From an archaeon (GTDB lineage Archaea; Asgardarchaeota; Heimdallarchaeia; Heimdallarchaeales; Heimdallarchaeaceae), in the NCBI GenBank assembly GCA_030631995.1, contig DAOVKB010000001.1, forward strand, positions 1,136-65,135: DNA of 64,000 nucleotides, read 5' to 3'. Both the position numbers and the translations under genes were made by a program. The notes under the pieces are model-generated. The model was not told where the DNA came from. It ran no database searches and saw only the letters and a list, made by a program, of their open reading frames with translations. Each line of letters starts with the position of its first letter. Within the stretch, counting starts at the first letter, position 1. Shown one piece after another: positions 6,123-45,956 of this stretch.

Positions 6123-7008
6123 TACTATTCATGTAATTCTAAGGGATTGGTTTATATATTTCTCTTTATCAACAAAAAGCATGGTGCTTATTGGTCAGAC
6201 AGTACAAGCGTATGAGGGGCTGGGATGTGAGCATTTAGTTCGATTTGCTAATCTTTTAGGTATAGAATCATGTGAAATTAATCCAAAAGGAACTAGTTTC
6301 AAGAACATTGATAAAATAATAAAAGCACTAGGGAAGATGAAAACAACTTATCATTTACCTGTAGCAGGTATTGAAGGATATGATTTTGCTTATCCTGACA
6401 AAGAGAAAGAGATAGGAGATATAATAAAATTAATCAACAAACATTCTGATGACCTTCATCTCATTCTGGGGGTTTTTCATCCGGTTGAGGAAAGGGGTAA
6501 TTTTGAAACCTTAGTTGAGAATCTAAAACAAGTGAACATAAAACTAGTTGTTGAGAACATTCAGAATTATTCTGATGAAGAGTTTGAAAATCTTTATGTG
6601 CAATTTAAGGATGAACTTGGGGATCAACTAAAAGGATGGCTGTTTGATGTTGCCCACTCTTTTTTGAGGAATGGGCCAGAGGATTATATGAACCTACTTG
6701 ATAAAATGCCTTTTGATGAGCTTGAAGAAATACATTTATCTGATTGTACAAAAAATGAAGATTCACATTATTCCTTTGGAGCTGGTATTATGCCAATCGA
6801 AAATATCCTGCAAGAAATTAAACGAAGAAAGTTCAATAAAATAATAGTGAATGAGATTGATGCGTATCCCAGTGTATGGAGTACGATTGATTCGTATAGA
6901 AAAGTAGCTAAATATTTCAAGAAACCACTTTATGTGAAGGTTTCAACTAGAAAACTACTCATTAAACCTGTGATACAAAGACGACTAAAGAAAGCTAACA
7001 TTGTTTAA
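6079..7008 (+). CDS. Hypothetical protein; start probably downstream (around MVLIGQ, ~6181)
   Basis: 309-aa ORF. Its first ~45 nt overlap the divergent 5364..6122 gene, so the annotated start is likely too far upstream. No confident family assignment. Confidence 0.3.
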   Translation: MSLGFLTKALVGCFITIHVILRDWFIYFSLSTKSMVLIGQTVQAYEGLGCEHLVRFANLLGIESCEINPKGTSFKNIDKIIKALGKMKTTYHLPVAGIEGYDFAYPDKEKEIGDIIKLINKHSDDLHLILGVFHPVEERGNFETLVENLKQVNIKLVVENIQNYSDEEFENLYVQFKDELGDQLKGWLFDVAHSFLRNGPEDYMNLLDKMPFDELEEIHLSDCTKNEDSHYSFGAGIMPIENILQEIKRRKFNKIIVNEIDAYPSVWSTIDSYRKVAKYFKKPLYVKVSTRKLLIKPVIQRRLKKANIV

Positions 7009-9996: not shown

Positions 9997-10694
9997 CTAA
10001 TTTCATTATTATTATTTTCCGATAATAAGTCTCGAATTCTATCGGTTAACCCTTGTGTATGAGCTTCTAATTCTATTTTCTTTATTGATTCTATTGCTTT
10101 CAGTTCGTCTTCTTTCTTCTTACCTTGAATCCAGATTCTTCCATTTTGACCGGTTATAATCTGTGTTCTAGTTAATCTCTTTACCATGTTAATCATTGTA
10201 CCTCTCTTTCCAATTACACGAGGTATATGTGCAGCTTCAATTTCGATAATTCTGCCACCTCTCAATTTTCCAAGTCCTCTTTCATTTGTGATAACTTGGG
10301 GATCTCTAGTTCTATCAAAACTAGCTATTTTGGTAAGAATTATATCACCAACATCGAAGATTCTTCTTGCATCATCTTTTACGGGATCAAATTTCTTTTC
10401 AGTAGCGTTATTTGCTAGTAGTACAGCAATATAAGGGGAACCAATATCAATTAACCAATTTGTTAACCCAACTTCAACTATTTTTCCAATTACTAAATCT
10501 CCGGGTCTAGGAACATATTTTCCTTTCAAGGATTTTACTTGAATAAAATCTCCTTTATCTTGAAAAAGACCGACAACTGTTGAATAATAGAAGTTTCCTC
10601 TTTTTATAATACCCTCGCCACATCGTATAGTTCCCTCAGCTAATATATCACCAGGGATAACTATTGCATGGTTTTCTAATGCTATCTTAGACAT
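9993..10694 (-). CDS. rrp4: Exosome cap subunit Rrp4 (S1 + KH domains)
   Basis: S1 domain followed by a KH GxxG motif (VIGKRGTMINMV); operon position. Confidence 0.85.
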   Translation of the reverse strand: MSKIALENHAIVIPGDILAEGTIRCGEGIIKRGNFYYSTVVGLFQDKGDFIQVKSLKGKYVPRPGDLVIGKIVEVGLTNWLIDIGSPYIAVLLANNATEKKFDPVKDDARRIFDVGDIILTKIASFDRTRDPQVITNERGLGKLRGGRIIEIEAAHIPRVIGKRGTMINMVKRLTRTQIITGQNGRIWIQGKKKEDELKAIESIKKIELEAHTQGLTDRIRDLLSENNNNEIR

Positions 10695-10713
10695 TTTTCT
10701 CGACCTTTAAAGT

Positions 10714-11469
10714 TTATTCTGACAATCTTTCTAACACTTTAACTTGTGCTTTACCTTTTGTACGAGAAGTTATTTGTTCCAAAAAATCTGCTTGTGTTCC
10801 AGAAGGTATTTGAACTAAAACAACCAAACTGCCATCAGATAACCATTCTTCTTGAACTAAATTTCCGGATGAAAGAACGTAACCATATAATGATCCTGTA
10901 AAACTTGGAGGAATTTTCAAGGCTAATTTTACTGATTCAAGCCTGATAGGCATAATTGGTTTAAGCAAATCAATAATTTCTAAAGCCTGTATTTTAATTT
11001 CTTCCTTATAATCAATATTAACTCCCAAATCCATTATTGCTTTATCAATCCTATCTTTAGGTATAGGAGTATTTTCTCTGGGATTAATACAGTGAATATG
11101 AATAAAATTAACAATCTCTGCTCGTTTTTCCTTCAATATTTCATTTCTTTGCTCAGCTGTTAATTGAAGCTGACCATCTTTTAAAATACGCAAAGCAATA
11201 TCTCTTTCACTTGCTTCTTCCCCGAATACAGCTAAAATATCATCTTCAGAAGATCTGTGACCACGAGAAACATTTTCATAAACTTGTAATGTATCAAAAA
11301 TATCATCGGGGTCTATTTCTTCTCCCTGTAAAAATAACCAAGCTGATTCTGGATTAACCAGCAATTCAAACCTTCTTCCATGCGCTTGGTATCGGACAAG
11401 AGACTTACCTTTTAAATCAATTCTTTTGTCTCCGGTAATAGCGCCATGATCTCGTACCATAGCATTCAC
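10714..11469 (-). CDS. sdo1: SBDS/Sdo1 ribosome maturation protein
   Basis: FYSH-domain motifs VRYQAHGRRFELLVNPESAW...IDPDDIFDTLQVYENVSRG...DDILAVFG; heads the exosome operon as in other archaea. Confidence 0.8.
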   Translation of the reverse strand: MNAMVRDHGAITGDKRIDLKGKSLVRYQAHGRRFELLVNPESAWLFLQGEEIDPDDIFDTLQVYENVSRGHRSSEDDILAVFGEEASERDIALRILKDGQLQLTAEQRNEILKEKRAEIVNFIHIHCINPRENTPIPKDRIDKAIMDLGVNIDYKEEIKIQALEIIDLLKPIMPIRLESVKLALKIPPSFTGSLYGYVLSSGNLVQEEWLSDGSLVVLVQIPSGTQADFLEQITSRTKGKAQVKVLERLSE

Positions 11470-12145: not shown

Positions 12146-13051
12146 ATGATTTTATATGCACATAATATAATGGTAAATTGTAGATTCAAGATGTCAAAGA
12201 AAGATGAATTCAAATCACTTGTTGGTTCCATTAACATGGTAAAGAACATGGTTGAAAGCATTGTTTCAGCAGTTCAAGAACGTTTCAAAGATTATGATAA
12301 TGTTGTAGTATCATTAAGGGAGAGATTAGATAAACTAGAAGCTCAATCGGGACAAAGTACATCTACTCAAGCAGTACCAACAGATGCAGCAAATCTAGTT
12401 AACAAAATAGAGCAATTAACAAAAAGAATGGATAGCTTAAATGAACGAATACTGCTCATAGAAGCAACAAAAAGTGTTCATGATGAAACTATAGTTGAAC
12501 CCACAGATGTTCAAGCAATAAAAGATATAGCAGCAGAAGCTCCATCAGCAGTACCTGCACCTGTTCCAACACCAGTACCTGAAGAAGCTGAAGCAATTGC
12601 TGAATTTGAAATTCCGACAGAAGATCCTGAGAAGGATTTAACATCAATCCCCGCACCACCAACACCTGAATCTATTCCAACTCCAAGAGCAGAAATTCCT
12701 TCAGCACCACCAACACAGAAAATTGAGGAAGTAGAACTTCCAAAAGTTGCACCATTTGCTCCTCCTACTGAAATCCCAGCACCACCAGCACCTAAGCCTG
12801 CAACACAAATTACAGAAGATGTTGAAAGAGACGTAAGTCCCATTTCTAAACAGGTAAGTGGAAGCATACCTATGCCTCCTAAAAAAGAAGGGGTCACAGA
12901 TGCAACAGAAATTCAGCCTTCCGTTCTTAAGACTGAAGAAGAAGAAGCCACAGTACCAGAAGAAGGAAAATCAGCAGAGATTTTTGGTGAGGCTGTCAGC
13001 GGTGATAAAGCAGAACTTCTTAAAGCTTTGAAGAAATTAGAAGATCTTTAA
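12146..13051 (+). CDS. Coiled-coil plus proline-rich low-complexity protein
   Basis: N-terminal coiled-coil segment followed by PAPVPTPVPEE...PAPPTPESIPTP...PAPPAPKP repeats. The start may be the internal MSKKDEF. Confidence 0.4.
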   Translation: MILYAHNIMVNCRFKMSKKDEFKSLVGSINMVKNMVESIVSAVQERFKDYDNVVVSLRERLDKLEAQSGQSTSTQAVPTDAANLVNKIEQLTKRMDSLNERILLIEATKSVHDETIVEPTDVQAIKDIAAEAPSAVPAPVPTPVPEEAEAIAEFEIPTEDPEKDLTSIPAPPTPESIPTPRAEIPSAPPTQKIEEVELPKVAPFAPPTEIPAPPAPKPATQITEDVERDVSPISKQVSGSIPMPPKKEGVTDATEIQPSVLKTEEEEATVPEEGKSAEIFGEAVSGDKAELLKALKKLEDL

Positions 13052-13099
13052 AGTTCCAGCAATCGGAAATTTCAAATATGGTTCTCAAAGATTTGCTTA

Positions 13100-14128
13100 A
13101 TGGTTATTTCAATTCCGCCTATTGCGATATATATTATTACATTTTTTATACCTTTGATTCTCACATTCATTGTATTACCTTTTCACATAAGATTTATGCT
13201 AAAGAAAGGAATTTTTGGAATTGATATTCATAAGGAGAGTAAACCGAAAGTTGCAGAAATGGGTGGAGTAATAATTCTCTTATCCATAATTCTTACATCC
13301 ATAGTAGGGATTTTGCTAGTTGATAATAACGTAGATAGACTCAAAATAGGAATATTCTGCATAACAGTATTGATAGCAGGAATCATAGGATTGATTGATG
13401 ATTTAATTAGACTTAGTGCATTACTAAAACCCTTGTTGCTCCTATTAGCATCAGTACCAATTATTGCATCAGGAATGTTTTCACCAGAACCAGTCCTACC
13501 ATTTGTAGGAAAAACAAGATTAACAATAGTCTATTATGTATTGTTGCCTTTTATCATTGCGGTTCCTTCGAATGCAGTAAACATGTTAGATGTCTTCAAT
13601 GGTTCAATGGCATTAGCTACGATTTTAGTACTAGTAGCAGTGTTCTTTGCCAATATGATAATCTTTCGAGGAGGAATCGAAAATCTTGATTTGACTTATG
13701 TATTCATCTTAATGATGATAGCAACTCTAATTGCGTTCTGGTTTTTCAACCGTTATCCAGCTAAAGTTTTTGCAGGAGATACAGGGAGTTTAGCTATTGG
13801 TGCATCACTAGGAGCAATAGCAGTACTTGGACAGCTTGAAGTTGTTGTGATTATCGCTATGATACCTTTTATTATGAATTCTTTCGGCATAATTAGTAGT
13901 GTTAGAGGGTTGATGGAAAGAAGAGAGATGGTGAGACCTACGAAAATGACTCATGATTGGAAAATACAATCCACTGGAGATTCGAAAGCTCCTATCACAC
14001 TTGTGGGTTTGGTTATTCAAAAAGAACCTCTACATGAGAAAGACATTGTTAAAAGTTTCAGTATTCTCACCTTTATAAGTGGGATATTTGCTCTGATAAC
14101 TGCAGTTTTGATTTGGTTGGTGATATAA
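13100..14128 (+). CDS. aglH: Glycosyltransferase family 4 polyprenyl-phosphate HexNAc-1-phosphate transferase (MraY/WecA/AglH-like)
   Basis: Polytopic membrane protein with the conserved VFAGDTGSLAIGASLG motif and IGLIDD / NAVNMLD aspartate motifs of the MraY/WecA family. Confidence 0.75.
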   Translation: MVISIPPIAIYIITFFIPLILTFIVLPFHIRFMLKKGIFGIDIHKESKPKVAEMGGVIILLSIILTSIVGILLVDNNVDRLKIGIFCITVLIAGIIGLIDDLIRLSALLKPLLLLLASVPIIASGMFSPEPVLPFVGKTRLTIVYYVLLPFIIAVPSNAVNMLDVFNGSMALATILVLVAVFFANMIIFRGGIENLDLTYVFILMMIATLIAFWFFNRYPAKVFAGDTGSLAIGASLGAIAVLGQLEVVVIIAMIPFIMNSFGIISSVRGLMERREMVRPTKMTHDWKIQSTGDSKAPITLVGLVIQKEPLHEKDIVKSFSILTFISGIFALITAVLIWLVI

Positions 14129-14406
14129 TGAGATATTATAAAATAACAAATAGAATATCAAAAATCATTGGACTTGAAGCATTTGTGTTTGCATCATTTA
14201 TAGGCATCTGTTTTCTAATTAATGCATTAATTGTTAATATTCCTGCAGTTCCTACCAAGCCAGGTATAAATTTCTTGCTTGCTACTTTAAAAGTAGGATT
14301 GGGTTTGTTGTTTGTGGGGATCTGGTTAGTTATTTGGTATATCATTACTAAGAGACTAATGAAAACGAAAAAGAAAACCAAAAGCGAAAAAAGTAGTGCT
14401 TCATGA
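14113..14406 (+). CDS. Small membrane protein (2 TM helices)
   Basis: 97 aa, two hydrophobic helices, overlaps the aglH end by 16 nt. Confidence 0.3.
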   Translation: MVGDIMRYYKITNRISKIIGLEAFVFASFIGICFLINALIVNIPAVPTKPGINFLLATLKVGLGLLFVGIWLVIWYIITKRLMKTKKKTKSEKSSAS

Positions 14407-14412
14407 ATCGTA

Positions 14413-15069
14413 CTATGATTGAGCTTCTAAAAGGAATAACCTTTTCTTTAGAATATAGAACTTCTTAGCGAATTCAATGCTAGAAATTTCATAATCTTCA
14501 AATTGTTGTTCTATCGCAAAGATTTCACTTTCTACATTTAATATTTCATCTTCAATATGCTTTTGTTTCTCTTGTTGTAATATCTTATTGCTTACTTGGC
14601 TTGGTTTCTTTGCTGATATTTCATTTAATTCCTTCTTTTTTTCTTCGAGAATAATTGTCAATTGTTCCTTTTGTTTTGTCAATGGTGTAAGTTGATTCTG
14701 AGGGTCTATTGCTTCTGCTTTAGCTTTAATCATTCTTGCAGGAACTTTAGAAAACAACCTTATTGTTTCCACAATCACTTGAAAAATATGATAACTTGAT
14801 CTCCATCTAGCAAGCATTCTCATTTCTAGAAAATTGTCATGAGTTAAATTTGGATGTGTTATAGGGGTTATAATTTTCACTTGTGGTGGAGTTTCTGGAA
14901 AAGTATCTGTAAGATAGATTTCAACTTCTACTAATATTTCACCTTCATCTGAAATAGCGGGAACAAAACCCCTCCATTTAGTTAAATCCCCTGCGATTGG
15001 TTCAAATGCATAAGCTCTTTCCATCACAAGACTATATTCTTTTGCTAAGACGCTATCTGGAACTGTCAT
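14413..15069 (-). CDS. UEV-domain (inactive E2 variant) protein with a C-terminal coiled coil: TSG101/Vps23-like ESCRT-I candidate
   Basis: E2-fold signature IYLTDTFPETPPQVKIITPITHPNL matches the TSG101 UEV LWLLDTYPYNPPICFVKPT. The HPN motif is present but no catalytic Cys follows. C-terminal ~90 aa form a predicted coiled coil ending in a steadiness-box-like hydrophobic segment. Confidence 0.6.
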   Translation of the reverse strand: MTVPDSVLAKEYSLVMERAYAFEPIAGDLTKWRGFVPAISDEGEILVEVEIYLTDTFPETPPQVKIITPITHPNLTHDNFLEMRMLARWRSSYHIFQVIVETIRLFSKVPARMIKAKAEAIDPQNQLTPLTKQKEQLTIILEEKKKELNEISAKKPSQVSNKILQQEKQKHIEDEILNVESEIFAIEQQFEDYEISSIEFAKKFYILKKRLFLLEAQS

Positions 15070-15178
15070 AATATCCTAACACCTTTCTTGTAAGTATTTC
15101 ACAGCGTTCTATTTATAGATTCTCTTTTCTATTAAAACAAAATTCAACATCTCTAGATTTTTATATTAACATTTTTCC

Positions 15179-17041
15179 ATGGATTTAATGACTAGAGTTG
15201 CAGTGATAAATCACGATAAATGCAGACCTGATAAATGTGGAAAATTATGCTATAAGGTATGTCCCACTGTCAGAGCTGGTAGAGAAACAATATCATTTGA
15301 GCCCCCTAGTAATAAAGCTGTTATCCATGAACCTCTCTGCGAAGGCGTTGGAATTTGTGTTAAGAAATGCCCTTTTCATTGTATAACTGTAGTCAACTTA
15401 CCTGAAGAGTTAGATAAAGAAGTAACCCATAGATATAGCATTAATGGTTTTAAACTTCATAGATTACCGATGCCAAAATTAGGACGGGTTACAGGATTAG
15501 TTGGACAAAATGGTTCCGGAAAAACAACCACATTGAACATCTTACAAGGGAATTTCTCACCTAATTTGGGTAGGTTTGAACAGCCCCCTGAATGGGAAGA
15601 GATATTAGAGCATTTCAGAGGAAAGGAAATTCAGAACTACTTTGAGAAACTAGCAAACAAAGAATTAAGAATCATCCTAAAACCGCAAAATGTTGATAAA
15701 TTACCAAAAGCTATCAAAGGGAATGTTTCAGATCTTATTAATAAAGTGGATGAAAAAAATCTAAAGAACGAGGTAAAGGAAATTTTTTCCTTGGAAAAGG
15801 TATGGGATAGAGATATCTCAAAACTAAGTGGGGGAGAGTTACAAAGACTAGCAATTGCAGCAACCGTTGTTCGTGAAGCAGATGTATATTTGTTTGATGA
15901 ACCTACAGCTTACTTAGATGTGCAAGAGAGGGTGAAAATTTCACAATATCTTAACGATATGAAATCACCGAATCACACATTAATTGTAGTTGAACATGAT
16001 CTTGCAATGCTTGATTATCTGAGTGATCAGATATTCATCTACTATGGAGCAGCAGGTGTTTATGGTATCGTTAGCCATCCACATGCTGTAAGAGAAGGAA
16101 TCAATGTTTTTCTTGATGGTTATATTCCATCAGAAAACATGCGATTTAGACCACAACCAATCATTTTCAAAAAAACTAGTATGGAAGATAAAGCAATATC
16201 CCATAGACTAGCTCTACGATATGGTGAAATGACAAAAAAATTCAATGGTTTTGAATTGTCTACCAAAGGAGGAGAGCTCTATAAAGGAGAAGTAATAGGC
16301 ATTATTGGACCAAATGGAATTGGAAAAACAACTTTTGTAAAGATGCTTGCAGGTGTTCTTGAACCTACAACAATTTCGGAACCTGTAGAACTTTTAGTTG
16401 AGATAGCTACAAAGAAGGAAGAAGACTCTGAAGAACGAGAAAGAGAAGAGAAAATTGAATCTTTCAAGGTTAGTCACAAACCCCAATATCTATACACTGA
16501 ATCAGAGCAAACAGTAGAGGAATATCTTAGAGAGATAAACCCCGTAATGCTATCAAGTGGTTGGCATAAAACAGAGATAGTTGAACCACTTAAGTTTTCC
16601 AAACTACTTGATTCACAATTAAGGGATCTTTCAGGAGGGGAACTTCAGAAAGTGTCTATAGCTGCTTGTTTGGGTAGAAGGGCTCATCTTTATCTTCTGG
16701 ATGAACCTTCAGCATACATATCATCTGAAGATAGAGTGAATGTTGCGAAAGTAATTAAGAGAGTAGTTTCTCACTATGAAATGCCTGCTTTAGTTGTAGA
16801 GCATGATGTTATGATGCTTAATTTCACTTCAGACAGACTAATTATTTTTGATGGACAACCAAGTGTAAAGGGTCGTAGTAGCTCAATAGGATCGATGCAA
16901 TATGGAATGAATGCTTTTCTTAGAAAAATGGATATAACTTTCAGACAAGATCCACGAACACTCAGACCCAGAGTTAACAAAAAGGACTCTCAACTAGATA
17001 AAAAGCAAAAAGCAGAAGGAAAGTATTTTGTTCCTGCTTAA
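15179..17041 (+). CDS. abcE1: ABCE1 (RNase L inhibitor / Rli1) ribosome recycling factor
   Basis: N-terminal double 4Fe-4S cluster (CRPDKCGKLCYKVCP, CEGVGICVKKCP), then two ABC domains (GQNGSGKTT / GPNGIGKTT Walker A; LSGGELQ signatures). 620 aa. Confidence 0.9.
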   Translation: MDLMTRVAVINHDKCRPDKCGKLCYKVCPTVRAGRETISFEPPSNKAVIHEPLCEGVGICVKKCPFHCITVVNLPEELDKEVTHRYSINGFKLHRLPMPKLGRVTGLVGQNGSGKTTTLNILQGNFSPNLGRFEQPPEWEEILEHFRGKEIQNYFEKLANKELRIILKPQNVDKLPKAIKGNVSDLINKVDEKNLKNEVKEIFSLEKVWDRDISKLSGGELQRLAIAATVVREADVYLFDEPTAYLDVQERVKISQYLNDMKSPNHTLIVVEHDLAMLDYLSDQIFIYYGAAGVYGIVSHPHAVREGINVFLDGYIPSENMRFRPQPIIFKKTSMEDKAISHRLALRYGEMTKKFNGFELSTKGGELYKGEVIGIIGPNGIGKTTFVKMLAGVLEPTTISEPVELLVEIATKKEEDSEEREREEKIESFKVSHKPQYLYTESEQTVEEYLREINPVMLSSGWHKTEIVEPLKFSKLLDSQLRDLSGGELQKVSIAACLGRRAHLYLLDEPSAYISSEDRVNVAKVIKRVVSHYEMPALVVEHDVMMLNFTSDRLIIFDGQPSVKGRSSSIGSMQYGMNAFLRKMDITFRQDPRTLRPRVNKKDSQLDKKQKAEGKYFVPA

Positions 17042-45338: not shown

Positions 45339-45956
45339 TTGAACAATGGATTGTATAGAAAAAAGGACAGTGATAGGGGAAAGGCTATGGCTGCAGGACA
45401 AAGAAAAATATTTAAAATTACACTACTGGGAGACGGTGCAGTAGGGAAGACAAGTCTAAGGAAAACATATCTGGGAGAGGGATTTAAAGATGGATATTCC
45501 ATGACAATTGGAGCTGATTTCGCTGTTAAGCGACTACGTATCGATGACCAAGATTTTGTTGCCCAAATTTGGGATCTTGCAGGTCAACAGAGATTCTCAG
45601 CTGTTCGTGAAGTTTATTACCGTGGAACTTCTGGTTGCCTCTTAGTTTTTGATATCTCTCGTCGATCCAGTTTTGAAAACATTCCTTCTTGGATTGCTGA
45701 GCTTCTTAAAAATAACAGTAATCGTGTTGTTCCTATCGTTCTCATTGGTAATAAATCCGATTTAAGGTCTACAGCTAAAGATCCAATCATGCGTGAACAA
45801 GCTGAAGAATATGCTCGCTCTCTTTCTGGTTGGTCTGGTTTTACTGTTCCATATATTGAAACTTCTGCTAAAACTGGAGAAAATGTTGATGAGGCTTTCA
45901 AGACCTTATTGAAAAATATCGTTTTATTCTATGAGAAGCTTTATGCGCAACAATAA
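45339..45956 (+). CDS. Ras-superfamily small GTPase, Rab-like
   Basis: G1 GDGAVGKTS, switch I TIGADF (Rab TIGxDF), G3 WDLAGQQ (WDTAGQE), G4 GNKSDL, G5 ETSAK. The start is probably the internal MAAGQRK. Confidence 0.75.
   Translation: MNNGLYRKKDSDRGKAMAAGQRKIFKITLLGDGAVGKTSLRKTYLGEGFKDGYSMTIGADFAVKRLRIDDQDFVAQIWDLAGQQRFSAVREVYYRGTSGCLLVFDISRRSSFENIPSWIAELLKNNSNRVVPIVLIGNKSDLRSTAKDPIMREQAEEYARSLSGWSGFTVPYIETSAKTGENVDEAFKTLLKNIVLFYEKLYAQQ

Follow-up and report, generated by a model that had tools for sequence, protein, structure and literature searches.

Among the eukaryote-signature machines with a history reaching back to Asgard archaea is ESCRT-I, and no known group is more closely related to eukaryotes than Heimdallarchaeia. 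A gene located outside any ESCRT cluster on an archaeal DNA stretch of 64,000 nucleotides, hereafter called the window, raises the question of whether it encodes an ESCRT-I subunit. A reading based on the letters alone, referred to here as the sequence-only reading, had described its product as a TSG101/Vps23-like protein from an Asgard archaeon, composed of an inactive E2 variant, a coiled coil, and a steadiness-box-like end. The Asgard origin was correct: the source organism belongs to Heimdallarchaeaceae, and the nearest genome was that of MAG RS_9_76 (97%).

The gene is complete and occupies positions 14413..15069 of the minus strand, exactly as had been called, with 218 codons beginning with ATG and followed by a stop codon. 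The close homologues of its product (n=36) were each about 218 aa long, and the gene was undisrupted, encoding 218–223 aa, in the 27 species-level genomes recovered (27 genome loci). The dN/dS ratio was about 0.1 (range, 0.06–0.17), with similar values for the N- and C-terminal halves. The undisrupted copies and the dN/dS range exclude a chance ORF and show that the gene is real and selected, with strong purifying selection acting on both halves of the protein.

The neighborhood of the gene was also conserved. On one side, the ribosome-recycling ATPase ABCE1/RLI (15179..17041, plus strand; NF009945, 813.9 bits, and synteny) is transcribed divergently. On the other side, a convergent conserved block (12146..14406, plus strand), supported by Pfam and by tblastn synteny over loci L001–L032, spans a coiled-coil/Pro-rich protein (12146..13051; ortholog alignment and synteny), an AglH-like GT4 glycosyltransferase (13100..14128; Pfam), and a 97-aa membrane ORF (14113..14406; tblastn synteny), all on the plus strand. 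The order ABCE1, UEV gene, membrane ORF, and GT4 was kept across 27 species genomes. The divergent pair of ABCE1 and the UEV gene was present in 25 of 28 distinct related loci, three of the 25 having additional DNA between both genes, and the remaining three loci had no upstream sequence; the pairing persisted down to 49–51% identity. By tblastn, including the UEV-Vps28 fusion described below as a query, no ESCRT or ubiquitin genes were detected in the whole 64-kb window, and no Vps28, ESCRT-II, or ubiquitin genes were found within ±10 kb in related Heimdallarchaeaceae loci. The placement of the gene between the AglH-like gene and ABCE1, outside an ESCRT/ubiquitin cluster, had been recognized in the sequence-only reading and applies to the related loci as well.

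Residues 1–113 (14731..15069, minus strand) form a catalytically inactive UBC/E2-fold domain of the UEV type, as indicated by Pfam, AlphaFold, Foldseek, and phmmer searches of the PDB. In the AlphaFold model of the 218-aa protein (pLDDT 81.9), this domain consists of a helix (5–18), four strands, and a crossover helix (95–108), which is the only helix following the sheet; both C-terminal helices of full E2s are missing, as they are in TSG101/Vps23-type UEV domains. The protein matched Pfam UQ_con (PF00179) with 38.9 bits (E 8e-10; gathering cutoff 27). Its match to Pfam UEV (PF05743), the model proposed earlier as a check, was 14.2 bits and did not reach the cutoff of 27, and 32 of 43 relatives matched this model at E <= 1 (best 2.9e-10). 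Foldseek superposed the domain on solved E2s at about 2.5 Å over 105–115 residues, and on UbcH5, Rad6, and Ubc13 with rmsd values of 2.1–3 Å over 105–116 columns and a probability of 1.00. The best phmmer matches in the PDB were active E2s and Mms2/UEV1, with Mms2/UEV2 at E about 3e-4, and Mms2 (1JAT_B) was rank 15 in the Foldseek search. TSG101 was absent from the top 50–60 PDB matches of the domain in both the sequence and the fold searches. Ordinary E2s and Mms2 are thus closer matches to the domain than TSG101 is. The E2-fold core recognized in the sequence-only reading is therefore upheld by profile and structure, and its quoted signature stretch IYLTDTFPETPPQVKIITPITHPN corresponds to residues 51–74, but the close alignment to the TSG101 UEV was overstated. 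An RWD domain, named there as a possible alternative, was rejected because the matches, seen in 8 of 43 relatives, were marginal (best E 0.0057).

The HPN motif (His72-Pro73-Asn74; 14848..14856, minus strand), read from the sequence, was invariant within the close family, and among 63 relatives the three residues were present in 53, 53, and 34 sequences, respectively. Alignment to the Ubc13 and UBE2A chains placed Glu82 (14824..14826, minus strand), eight residues after HPN, where E2 enzymes have their catalytic Cys. The retention of HPN and the loss of this Cys agree with the earlier description, and the protein contains no Cys anywhere. In the 63 relatives, the catalytic column was occupied by S, N, D, R, E, A, T, and others, never by Cys, and no Cys occurred within 4 positions of it (0/63). 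Without a Cys in the protein, the E2-fold domain is unable to take up ubiquitin as a thioester. The N-terminal domain is a UEV in the broad sense, that is, an E2 fold minus the catalytic Cys, and close homologues carry the NCBI name 'ubiquitin-conjugating enzyme E2 variant'.

After the E2 domain, the AlphaFold model contains three helices (123–153, 161–191, and 197–217), the last two of which form a hairpin with pLDDT values of 94–97. The helices 123–153 and 161–191 both qualified as coiled-coil stalk in the model. The first of them (14611..14703, minus strand) is the predicted stalk, and its residues Q133, L137, K144, and L148 were invariant in the close family. In a tblastn alignment, residues 8–182 of the UEV-Vps28 fusion matched residues 5–192 of the 218-aa protein with 35% identity (E 1e-27), and judging from this alignment the stalks of the two proteins are homologous.

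The steadiness box holds the eukaryotic ESCRT-I headpiece together. In the 218-aa protein, residues 161–218 (14416..14589, minus strand) were assigned to a helical hairpin of this type on the basis of hhalign, Foldseek, and the AlphaFold model. The hairpin has an acidic helix (171–192; 8 Asp/Glu and no Lys/Arg), a DYEIS turn, and a basic helix (197–217; 5 Lys/Arg), and an acidic-then-basic charge pattern is how Lu et al. 2023 describe the steadiness box. The Vps23-core check suggested earlier gave no direct match: neither the whole protein nor its C-terminal half matched Pfam Vps23_core (PF09454) or Mod_r at E <= 1, and Vps23_core was matched by 10 of 43 relatives (best 1.4e-6). The C-terminal profile of the family was then aligned by hhalign to nine Asgard regions that match Pfam Vps23_core, giving probabilities of 94.6–95.7% at E 1e-8. 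The hhalign score was 42.8, compared with 11.2 ± 2.4 (maximum 20) for 200 column shuffles and 13.4 for the reversed target. The Asgard Vps23_core profile in turn found the yeast Vps23 core 2F66_A (E 9.5e-5) and TSG101 6VME_B (E 0.0076) in the PDB. With the hairpin model as the Foldseek query, the top two matches were 2F66_A and 2F6M_C (rmsd 0.6–0.8 Å, probability 0.99), followed by 2P22_A, 6VME chains, and 2CAZ, with yeast Vps23 at ranks 1, 2, and 4; the E-values were weak (0.4–6), as is typical of any short helical hairpin. These results show that the C-terminal hairpin is a steadiness-box homologue, and the coiled coil and steadiness-box-like end of the sequence-only reading are both borne out.

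The connection with eukaryotic sequences was indirect. When PDB sequences were searched by HMM, the family profile did not find ESCRT-I chains, and the C-terminal profiles returned coiled-coil noise, namely uL29/L35 (E 0.12) and designed coiled coils, whereas canonical Asgard boxes, used as a positive control in the same kind of search, did detect ESCRT-I. Taken alone, the searches with the C-terminal profiles carry no information. Comparison of the family profile with the single yeast Vps23 core sequence was not significant (P 0.19), and therefore the link to eukaryotic proteins is transitive and structural; direct sequence similarity to eukaryotic proteins is not claimed. The domain order nevertheless matches that of TSG101/Vps23, namely an inactive E2 variant, a coiled-coil stalk, and a steadiness-box hairpin, and the hairpin model superposes at 0.6–0.8 Å on yeast Vps23 and the human headpiece 6VME chains, in which chain B is TSG101. 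Each of the three parts of the Vps23-type ESCRT-I architecture is thus supported. Compared with TSG101, the UEV domain keeps HPN and an E2-like loop spacing and scores under the PF05743 cutoff, and the protein has a much shorter stalk and neither a Pro-rich linker nor PTAP. UEV domains of the TSG101/Vps23 type bind ubiquitin non-covalently at its Ile44 patch, and that of TSG101 also has a P(S/T)AP-binding groove. Like Mms2/UEV1 (UBE2V1/2), which are Ubc13 cofactors, the 218-aa protein has an E2 variant devoid of the Cys, comparable in core size and lacking the last two E2 helices; Mms2/UEV1 have no HPN, stalk, or hairpin, and the 218-aa protein has 105 extra residues of stalk and hairpin.

The same genomes encode a paralogue, the UEV-stalk-Vps28 fusion HeimAB125_14070 (OLS31938.1), which shares the UEV domain and stalk at the 35% identity given above and sits beside the family in the UEV-domain tree; it differs in being about 470 aa long with a full Vps28 domain. 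The fusion and the 218-aa type were co-encoded in at least five MAGs (locus-tag prefixes GOP50, H7644, H7645, H7641, and AB_125), and for GOP50 both were present in one assembly, GCA_021399395.1. The ESCRT-I partner whose genome-wide absence would, according to the sequence-only reading, weaken the ESCRT interpretation is therefore present in these MAGs. In the one assembly examined, the cluster of the fusion contained Vps22, Vps25, Vps4, two Snf7 genes, ubiquitin, and E1. An ORF of 101 aa lies downstream of the fusion, and HeimAB125_14240 is a Heimdall ubiquitin. At this one locus the fusion adjoins ubiquitin/E1/ESCRT genes, whereas the gene of the 218-aa protein adjoins ABCE1. Ubiquitin binding by the UEV domain of the fusion and self-dimerization of the fusion have been shown experimentally, as have ubiquitin binding by Odin Vps23 and a measured complex of 2 Vps23 : 1 Vps28 in Odinarchaeota (Hatano et al. 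2022, PMC9192718). Lu et al. 2023 likewise found that Asgard UEV domains bind ubiquitin and that Vps23 binds Vps28. The experimentally supported ESCRT-I subunit of this lineage is accordingly the HeimAB125_14070 fusion, and the 218-aa protein is its out-of-cluster paralogue.

Other Asgard UEV-Vps23 proteins (asCOG005829/007313) resemble the 218-aa protein in a three-part architecture that could be aligned end to end and in a homologous steadiness box. The family profile matched the Odinarchaeia Vps23 P0047 (E 1.6e-37) and P0056 from the Lokiarchaeota MAG EU551 (E 6.4e-33), both over the full length. The proteins of Odinarchaeia, EU551, and Kariarchaeaceae are longer (236–307 aa), and most match Pfam Vps23_core directly. 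The three Kari-type genes examined (P0107, P0243, and P0237) lie in ESCRT operons, each directly upstream of and overlapping Vps28, which is followed by Vps22, with Vps25, Vps4, and Snf7 further downstream but not all in every locus; the gene of the shorter 218-aa protein lies by ABCE1 instead. The operon-encoded Vps23 proteins of Kariarchaeaceae-type genomes are distant full-length relatives of the 218-aa protein.

An exact look-up identified HeimAB125_11700 (OLS32161.1) of Candidatus Heimdallarchaeota archaeon AB_125, a species other than the source, as the orthologue. It is likewise 218 aa long, has 69% identity and no Cys at the catalytic position, and is located in the same neighborhood of ABCE1, UEV gene, membrane ORF, and GT4. 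In Hatano et al. 2022 (PMC9192718), AB_125 has two Cys-less E2-like (UEV) candidates, and HeimAB125_11700 is one of them; the modelling there covered the E2-like part, and residues from 91 onward were discarded because of low confidence. The assignment of the stalk and steadiness box for this type is new relative to that study. The 218-aa protein is probably a member of UEV_X (Lu et al. 2023), judging from the description of this group (Lu et al. 2023/2024), which gives OLS29001.1 as an example and Gerd-, Heimdall-, and Kariarchaeia as the distribution. UEV_X proteins are described as short UEVs of ~205–220 aa with a conserved helical segment at ~170–210, found in matching Asgard classes and away from the ubiquitin cluster. 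The 218-aa type agrees with this description in its length, in the taxa that carry it, in where its conserved segment lies, and in occurring alongside canonical Vps23 or the fusion, and short relatives (P0045–P0060 and others) carry the C-terminal signature of the 218-aa protein and coexist with canonical Vps23. The difference lies in the C-terminal segment, which Lu et al. assign as GvpG-like and which was a steadiness box in the present tests. The protein type is already catalogued in the literature and in NCBI annotation and is not a new discovery; what has been achieved, as it stands, is its correct identification.

Taken together, it is fairly probable that the gene encodes a Vps23-like ESCRT-I paralogue, and by analogy with its characterized relatives the 218-aa protein is probably an additional ubiquitin-binding ESCRT-I subunit. 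The true stalk and steadiness box, the strong purifying selection, the presence in 27 genomes, and the fusion in at least five MAGs make it a candidate for an ESCRT-I subunit that has been missing so far. Its dead E2 domain would bind ubiquitin non-covalently, as has been demonstrated by experiment for the fusion and for the Vps23 proteins of Odin and Hel. By means of its stalk and hairpin, the protein may dimerize or pair with the fusion, whose hairpin and stalk are of the Vps28 type. The resulting complex would have at least two ubiquitin-binding heads and one Vps28 C-terminal domain recruiting ESCRT-II, and would mirror, by analogy, the 2 Vps23 : 1 Vps28 complex of Odinarchaeota. The adjacency to ABCE1 would then reflect family-level synteny and probably constitutive expression, with no functional link. 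Counting against the ESCRT-I reading, there is no ESCRT/ubiquitin neighbor in Heimdallarchaeaceae and no direct Pfam Vps23_core/Mod_r match, and PxxP is missing: between the stalk and the box, where PxxP is an autoinhibition element in Lu et al., the 218-aa protein has no such motif, the only prolines in that region being P123, P129, and P156. The fusion, moreover, dimerizes alone (Hatano et al. 2022, PMC9192718) and therefore does not require a partner, which also counts against this reading.

The position of the gene also fits a different role, in which the protein is a stand-alone ubiquitin(-like) receptor outside ESCRT that self-associates via its coiled coil and hairpin, for example in translation or ribosome quality control. 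The 218-aa type is always away from the ESCRT/ubiquitin cluster, it is paired head-to-head with ABCE1 in nearly all loci of 27 species genomes, a related short group in Kari-type genomes is also located amid housekeeping genes (RNA polymerase A'' and S12), and the coexisting canonical Vps23 or fusion means that the 218-aa type is not needed to provide the Vps23 function. However, the ABCE1 linkage is confined to Heimdallarchaeaceae and may be no more than inherited gene order, the match of the stalk to ribosomal protein uL29 was insignificant (E 0.12), and steadiness boxes are known solely as elements of ESCRT-I/CdvA-type assembly (Makarova et al. 2024, PMC10936438). We regard this receptor role as unlikely, though worth keeping in view. 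A functional link to ABCE1 itself is retained as a minor rival at most; the pairing, missing for the Kari-type short group, is read as inherited synteny. The proximity of the domain to E2s and Mms2/UEV1 rather than TSG101 (phmmer ~3e-4; 1JAT_B at rank 15), the retained HPN, and the two Cys-bearing E2s encoded by AB_125, 07740 and 09840 (Hatano et al. 2022, PMC9192718), would instead suit a cofactor of the Mms2/UEV1 type, which pairs with an active E2 and positions the acceptor ubiquitin, the coiled coil being merely an oligomerization handle. This is very improbable, as Mms2/UEV1 proteins have neither stalk nor steadiness box, the closest profile relatives were Asgard Vps23 proteins and fusions and not Mms2-like proteins, and no active E2 gene was found nearby in the 64-kb window or the related loci.

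Two further readings concern single domains. The GvpG-like (PF05120) assignment of the C-terminal region, put forward for UEV_X by Lu et al. 2023 (HHpred 65%), was reflected in weak matches in 5 of 43 and 5 of 26 relatives (best E 0.039–0.059) and in P0046 (E 0.18). The 218-aa protein itself had no GvpG match, matches to Mod_r and Vps23_core were commoner and of much greater strength (best 2.1e-5 and 1.4e-6, respectively), a Vps23 core was indicated by the fold search as well as by hhalign with its controls, and no gas-vesicle genes were found nearby; the GvpG assignment was rejected for its few and weak matches and has scarcely any likelihood left. An active E2 with a non-canonical catalytic residue would account for UQ_con being the best Pfam match, above its cutoff, and for the retained HPN. 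The sequence rules it out for practical purposes: the protein contains no Cys that could align at the catalytic position, and the catalytic column varies so freely that there is no conserved nucleophile there.

Vps37 is currently described as missing from Asgard archaea. Eukaryotic Vps37 has no UEV domain, and its Mod_r region (PF07200) resembles the 218-aa protein in the layout of stalk and steadiness box. It is conceivable, but distinctly doubtful, that the short UEV-stalk-box family is a separate third subunit of a heteromeric heimdallarchaeial ESCRT-I, an archaeal counterpart and possibly an antecedent of Vps37; its partner would be the operon-encoded Vps23/Vps28 in Kariarchaeaceae or the Vps23-Vps28 fusion in Heimdallarchaeaceae. 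In at least two family-level lineages, members of the short family occur alongside a canonical copy, and the C-terminal halves match Mod_r far more often than Vps23_core, the reverse of canonical Asgard Vps23. Mod_r was the most common Pfam match of the C-terminal halves of the non-canonical family (13/26, best E 2.1e-5). Against this, the 218-aa protein had no Mod_r match, every Mod_r match of the relatives was under the cutoff of 30.1 bits where a score was shown, and the longer Mod_r model may merely suit a short stalk better. The family profile did not match human VPS37B significantly (P 0.0043), and the canonical Asgard profile matched it better than the short-family profile, which also counts against a Vps37 counterpart. 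The published ESCRT-I of Heimdallarchaeaceae is the UEV-Vps28 fusion, and the second Cys-less E2-like protein has so far been left aside. If the 218-aa protein assembles with the fusion, archaeal ESCRT-I would share its heteromeric make-up with the eukaryotic complex, a point relevant to the divergence of Vps23 and Vps37.

Two features of the flanking DNA were also analyzed. A PSAP motif (residue 185) in the Pro-rich neighbor was considered as a UEV ligand and rejected as a composition effect. P[ST]AP was present in 14 of 26 orthologues of this neighbor compared with ~10% in shuffles, but permutations of the motif with identical composition were just as frequent, and the alignment showed no column conservation. 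The divergent intergenic region shared by the UEV gene and ABCE1 (15070..15178) is 109 bp long and AT-rich. A sigma-70 promoter/terminator scan gave nothing beyond chance, its models being bacterial and not relevant to archaea. By eye, TATA-like TATAAATA (minus strand, near 15110–15120) and TTTTATATT (near 15159–15168) were spotted, and from these letters the region may contain promoter elements.

Residues 47-108 of the 218-aa product of the UEV gene (14413..15069, minus strand; a 218-codon ORF with an ATG start) matched the Pfam model UQ_con with 38.9 bits (E 8e-10; cutoff 27), and the TSG101-type UEV model scored 14.2 bits, under its cutoff. The best PDB sequence matches obtained with phmmer were active E2s and Mms2/UEV1 (E about 1e-4 to 1e-3), and TSG101 was absent from the 60 best. 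In the phmmer alignments to E2s, Glu82 was aligned with the catalytic Cys column (HPN-LTHDNFL-E), and no cysteine was present anywhere in the protein. Among 63 aligned relatives, this column contained S, N, D, R, E, A, T, and other residues, never Cys, and none of the 63 had a Cys within four positions of it. The N-terminal domain is therefore an E2 variant, nearer in sequence to ordinary E2s than to TSG101; the E2-variant identity proposed by the sequence-only reading stood, but its statement that the domain aligns closely to TSG101 was overstated. A full-length AlphaFold model built on 27 family members (mean pLDDT 81.9) comprised an E2 part with helix 5-18, strands 22-25, 28-40, 43-52, and 63-66, and crossover helix 95-108, followed by three long helices (residues 123-153, 161-191, and 197-217). 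As in UEV domains, the E2 part lacks the two helices with which full E2s end. The PDB matches of this model in Foldseek were E2 enzymes (rmsd 2.1-3 A over about 105-116 columns, probability 1.00), with Mms2 at rank 15 and no TSG101 chain in the top 50.

The last 50 residues were the most conserved region of the family. An acidic helix at residues 171-192 (eight Asp/Glu, no Lys/Arg) is joined by a DYEIS turn to a basic helix at 197-217 (five Lys/Arg), and this order of charges is the steadiness-box pattern according to Lu et al. (2023). The window protein itself gave no Pfam match at E <= 1 to Vps23_core, Mod_r, or GvpG. An exhaustive profile search recovered 592 relatives (76 at E <= 1e-10), and longer relatives (264-473 aa) matched Vps23_core, as exemplified by P0053 (31.8 bits) and P0061 (29.1 bits), both over the cutoff; the VPS28 model was matched by P0061 over the cutoff and by P0069 weakly. 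These longer relatives are the UEV-Vps23 proteins and UEV-Vps28 fusions already known from Asgard archaea. An alignment of nine Vps23_core regions from them served as the target profile. It is a valid ESCRT-I probe, retrieving from the PDB the yeast Vps23 core structures (2F66_A, E 9.5e-5; also 2CAZ and 2P22) and human TSG101 (6VME_B, E 0.0076), as well as Vps28 weakly. The family C-terminal profile matched this target in hhalign with a probability of 94.6%, P 6.8e-8, and a score of 42.8, compared with 11.2 +/- 2.4 (max 20) for 200 column-shuffled targets and 13.4 for the reversed target. A wider profile containing only non-canonical members matched it at 95.7% and E 1e-8, in a gapless alignment over 53 columns corresponding to residues 166-218.

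The AlphaFold model of residues 118-218 had a pLDDT of 86, with 94-97 in the hairpin. When it was searched against 350,542 PDB chains with Foldseek, the yeast Vps23 core chains 2F66_A and 2F6M_C ranked first and second (rmsd 0.6-0.8 A, probability 0.99) and 2P22_A, the yeast Vps23/STP22 chain of the ESCRT-I core, ranked fourth; chains from 6VME (human ESCRT-I headpiece; chain B is TSG101) and 2CAZ (yeast core) recurred throughout the remaining top 50. The E-values (0.4-6) were weak, which is expected of a hairpin of 50 residues. Plain HMM searches of the family profiles against PDB sequences gave no significant eukaryotic match, and a comparison with one yeast sequence was not significant (P 0.19), so the proposed link to eukaryotic Vps23 rests on a transitive sequence chain and an independent match of the predicted fold. 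The window protein joins a dead E2 fold to a stalk and a steadiness-box hairpin, and its earlier identification as a TSG101/Vps23-like UEV protein was correct. Stalk residues 131-174 (nt ~14548..14679) also gave weak, non-significant matches to eukaryotic uL29/L35 (E 0.12-0.7), of note only for the ABCE1 neighbor and judged to be coiled-coil noise.

All 36 close homologues were about 218 aa long and bore names of Heimdallarchaeota or Heimdallarchaeaceae MAGs, and several were annotated by NCBI as 'ubiquitin-conjugating enzyme E2 variant'. In a scan of one genome per species, 27 loci carried the UEV gene, with record titles naming Heimdallarchaeota or Heimdallarchaeum (23), 'Thorarchaeota' (1), 'Promethearchaeati' (1), or 'uncultured archaeon' (2). 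Among them are AB_125 and the complete Ca. Heimdallarchaeum endolithica PR6 genome, and MAG RS_9_76 was nearest (97%). The gene is under strong purifying selection, with dN/dS of 0.06-0.17 against orthologues and constraint on both halves. Exact look-up identified the AB_125 copy as HeimAB125_11700 (OLS32161.1), one of two Cys-less E2-like candidates of AB_125 in Hatano et al. (2022, PMC9192718), who modelled only its E2-like part, dropped everything from residue 91 on because of low confidence, and left it untested. In the literature searched, no mention of it was found beyond that paper and its preprint. The 'Candidatus Thorarchaeota archaeon' contig (L008, JBHLQZ010000011.1) has a Heimdallarchaeaceae-type gene (74% identity) in full Heimdallarchaeaceae synteny and is probably mislabelled or mis-binned.

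Two proteins named Vps23, P0047 from an Odinarchaeia MAG and P0056 (EU551_01160) from a Lokiarchaeota MAG, matched the family profile over their full length (E 1.6e-37 and 6.4e-33, respectively); the UEV-Vps23 of the latter MAG was drawn as the canonical Lokiarchaeotal example by Hatano et al. More distant full-length relatives (22-28% identity), P0107 and P0243 from Kariarchaeaceae and P0237, each lie directly upstream of, and overlap, Vps28, followed by Vps22/EAP30 and, further downstream, by Vps25, Vps4, and Snf7 genes, except that L034 has only a Vps4_C fragment and no Snf7 was seen in L035. In these Kariarchaeaceae-type operons, the Vps23 and Vps28 ORFs (10001-10747 and 10704-11333 in L033, 8640-9359 and 9316-9936 in L034, 9587-10345 and 10299-10931 in L035) overlap by about 44-47 nt, and therefore a single frameshift or small deletion could have given rise to the Heimdallarchaeaceae UEV-stalk-Vps28 fusion.

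This fusion, of about 470 aa, holds the position of operon-type Vps23 in Heimdallarchaeaceae, and 49 were found, including HeimAB125_14070. Hatano et al. (2022, PMC9192718) showed that it dimerises and binds ubiquitin. Over the UEV domain and stalk it is 35% identical (E 1e-27) to the window protein, which is its paralogue. Against a background of 27 species genomes with a window-family gene, this gene and the fusion co-occur in at least five MAGs: GOP50 (GCA_021399395.1, contigs 115 and 7; GOP50_08620 and GOP50_01080, respectively), H7644 (H7644_14225 and H7644_11350), H7645 (H7645_03510 and H7645_08755), H7641 (H7641_14580 and H7641_02095), and AB_125 (HeimAB125_11700 and HeimAB125_14070). 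Where examined (L004), the fusion is accompanied by a full ubiquitin/ESCRT cluster, with ubiquitin and a ThiF-type E1 on one side and a 101-aa ORF, Vps22, Vps25, Vps4, and two Snf7 genes on the other. The 101-aa helical ORF (6388-6693, plus strand), located between the fusion and Vps22 and having no Pfam match, could be a free-standing ESCRT-I/II adaptor.

In Kariarchaeaceae and other Heimdallarchaeota MAGs, a short family of 205-217-aa proteins (P0045-P0060 and others) carries the C-terminal signature NELWALEDxYDxLEIDGxEFxKKFLxLQKRYYLI, matching NELFAIEQQFEDYEISSxEFAKKYFxLKKRLYLL of the window family. It clusters with the window family and the fusions in a neighbor-joining UEV-domain tree, which is only indicative at such divergence, and occurs alongside operon-type Vps23 (IH840_05120 with IH840_17435; P0054 and P0107 from one sample). 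At the two loci examined, P0054 and P0045 adjoin RNA polymerase A'' and S12, and neither ESCRT genes nor ABCE1 lie beside them. The A'' gene by P0054 (L036 12015-14582, minus strand) carries an intein (PF14890).

In the window, the UEV gene is flanked by a GT4 glycosyltransferase and a small membrane ORF to one side and by ABCE1/RLI (813.9 bits to NF009945) to the other. No ubiquitin, E1, Vps28, Vps22, Vps25, Vps4, or Snf7 homologue was found within the whole window, confirming that the gene stands outside an ESCRT/ubiquitin cluster. The order ABCE1 (divergent), UEV gene, 97-aa membrane ORF (convergent), GT4, and a coiled-coil/Pro-rich protein was found at essentially all sufficiently long Heimdallarchaeaceae loci and was kept down to 49-51% identity of the UEV protein. 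We read the ABCE1/UEV/GT4 arrangement as family-level inherited gene order and not as functional coupling, because the related short family has other neighbors in Kari-type genomes.

The short family fits the published description of UEV_X, which is known from Gerd-, Heimdall-, and Kariarchaeia (example OLS29001.1) and consists of a UEV domain and a segment 170-210 assigned to PF05120 with 65% HHpred probability (Lu et al. 2023). In the C-terminal halves, GvpG matches were few and weak (5/26, best E 0.059), which makes a GvpG-like tail very improbable, and Mod_r, the Vps37 stalk-plus-box model, was the commonest family (13/26, best E 2.1e-5); in the broader relative set, the best E was 1.4e-6 for Vps23_core and 3.1e-5 for Mod_r. 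We assign the conserved C-terminal segment to the steadiness box, not to GvpG. That the window family is a Vps37-like third ESCRT-I subunit seems unlikely, since its Mod_r matches were all under the cutoff and the canonical Asgard profile matched human VPS37B better (P 9e-5) than the window family did (P 0.0043).

We consider it probable that the window protein acts as a ubiquitin-binding E2 variant in an ESCRT-I-like complex. The E2 variant would bind ubiquitin non-covalently, by analogy with the paralogous fusion and with Odin and Hel relatives, and the protein may use its stalk and hairpin to associate with itself or to pair with the fusion's Vps28-type hairpin. A complex formed in this way would carry a single Vps28 C-terminal domain alongside several heads that bind ubiquitin, and would be comparable to the complex of Odinarchaeota, in which a 2:1 ratio of Vps23 to Vps28 has been measured. 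It is distinctly less probable that the protein is a ubiquitin receptor independent of ESCRT, perhaps connected with translation via the adjacent ABCE1, and a role as an Mms2-like E2 cofactor is more doubtful still; an active E2 is refuted by the absence of Cys. Proteins of this type are already recorded in the literature and NCBI annotation. Added to these records here are the assignment of the C-terminal segment to the steadiness box rather than to GvpG, the orthology to HeimAB125_11700, the co-occurrence with the fusion, the conserved synteny, and a specific testable hypothesis.

The 97-aa membrane ORF (14113..14406, plus strand) contains stretches predicted to span the membrane, shares 16 nt with the end of the GT4 gene, and stops 6 nt before the stop codon of the convergent UEV gene. 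It is kept in all related loci at 45-90% identity and is therefore a real gene. The coiled-coil/Pro-rich ORF (12146..13051, plus strand; Met16, near nt 12191, is probably the true start) is conserved in at least 24 Heimdallarchaeaceae loci, two genes away from the UEV gene. The N-terminal coiled coil of its product is strongly conserved and the C-terminal helix 'SAELFGEAVSGDKAELLKALKKLEDL' nearly invariant; the other two parts are a variable Pro-rich linker and a conserved motif 'ERDVSPISKEVSGxIPxPP'. No Pfam family exceeded its cutoff (DUF7310, E 0.0026), and the PSAP motif of this protein was discarded after testing, as an effect of composition. Elsewhere in the window lies a gene for an Arf-family small GTPase (~45339..45956, plus strand), one of the 'eukaryotic signature' GTPases typical of Asgard archaea; it shows 38% identity (E 2e-33) to an Arf-like GTPase whose gene is located a few genes away from ubiquitin in the L004 ESCRT cluster.
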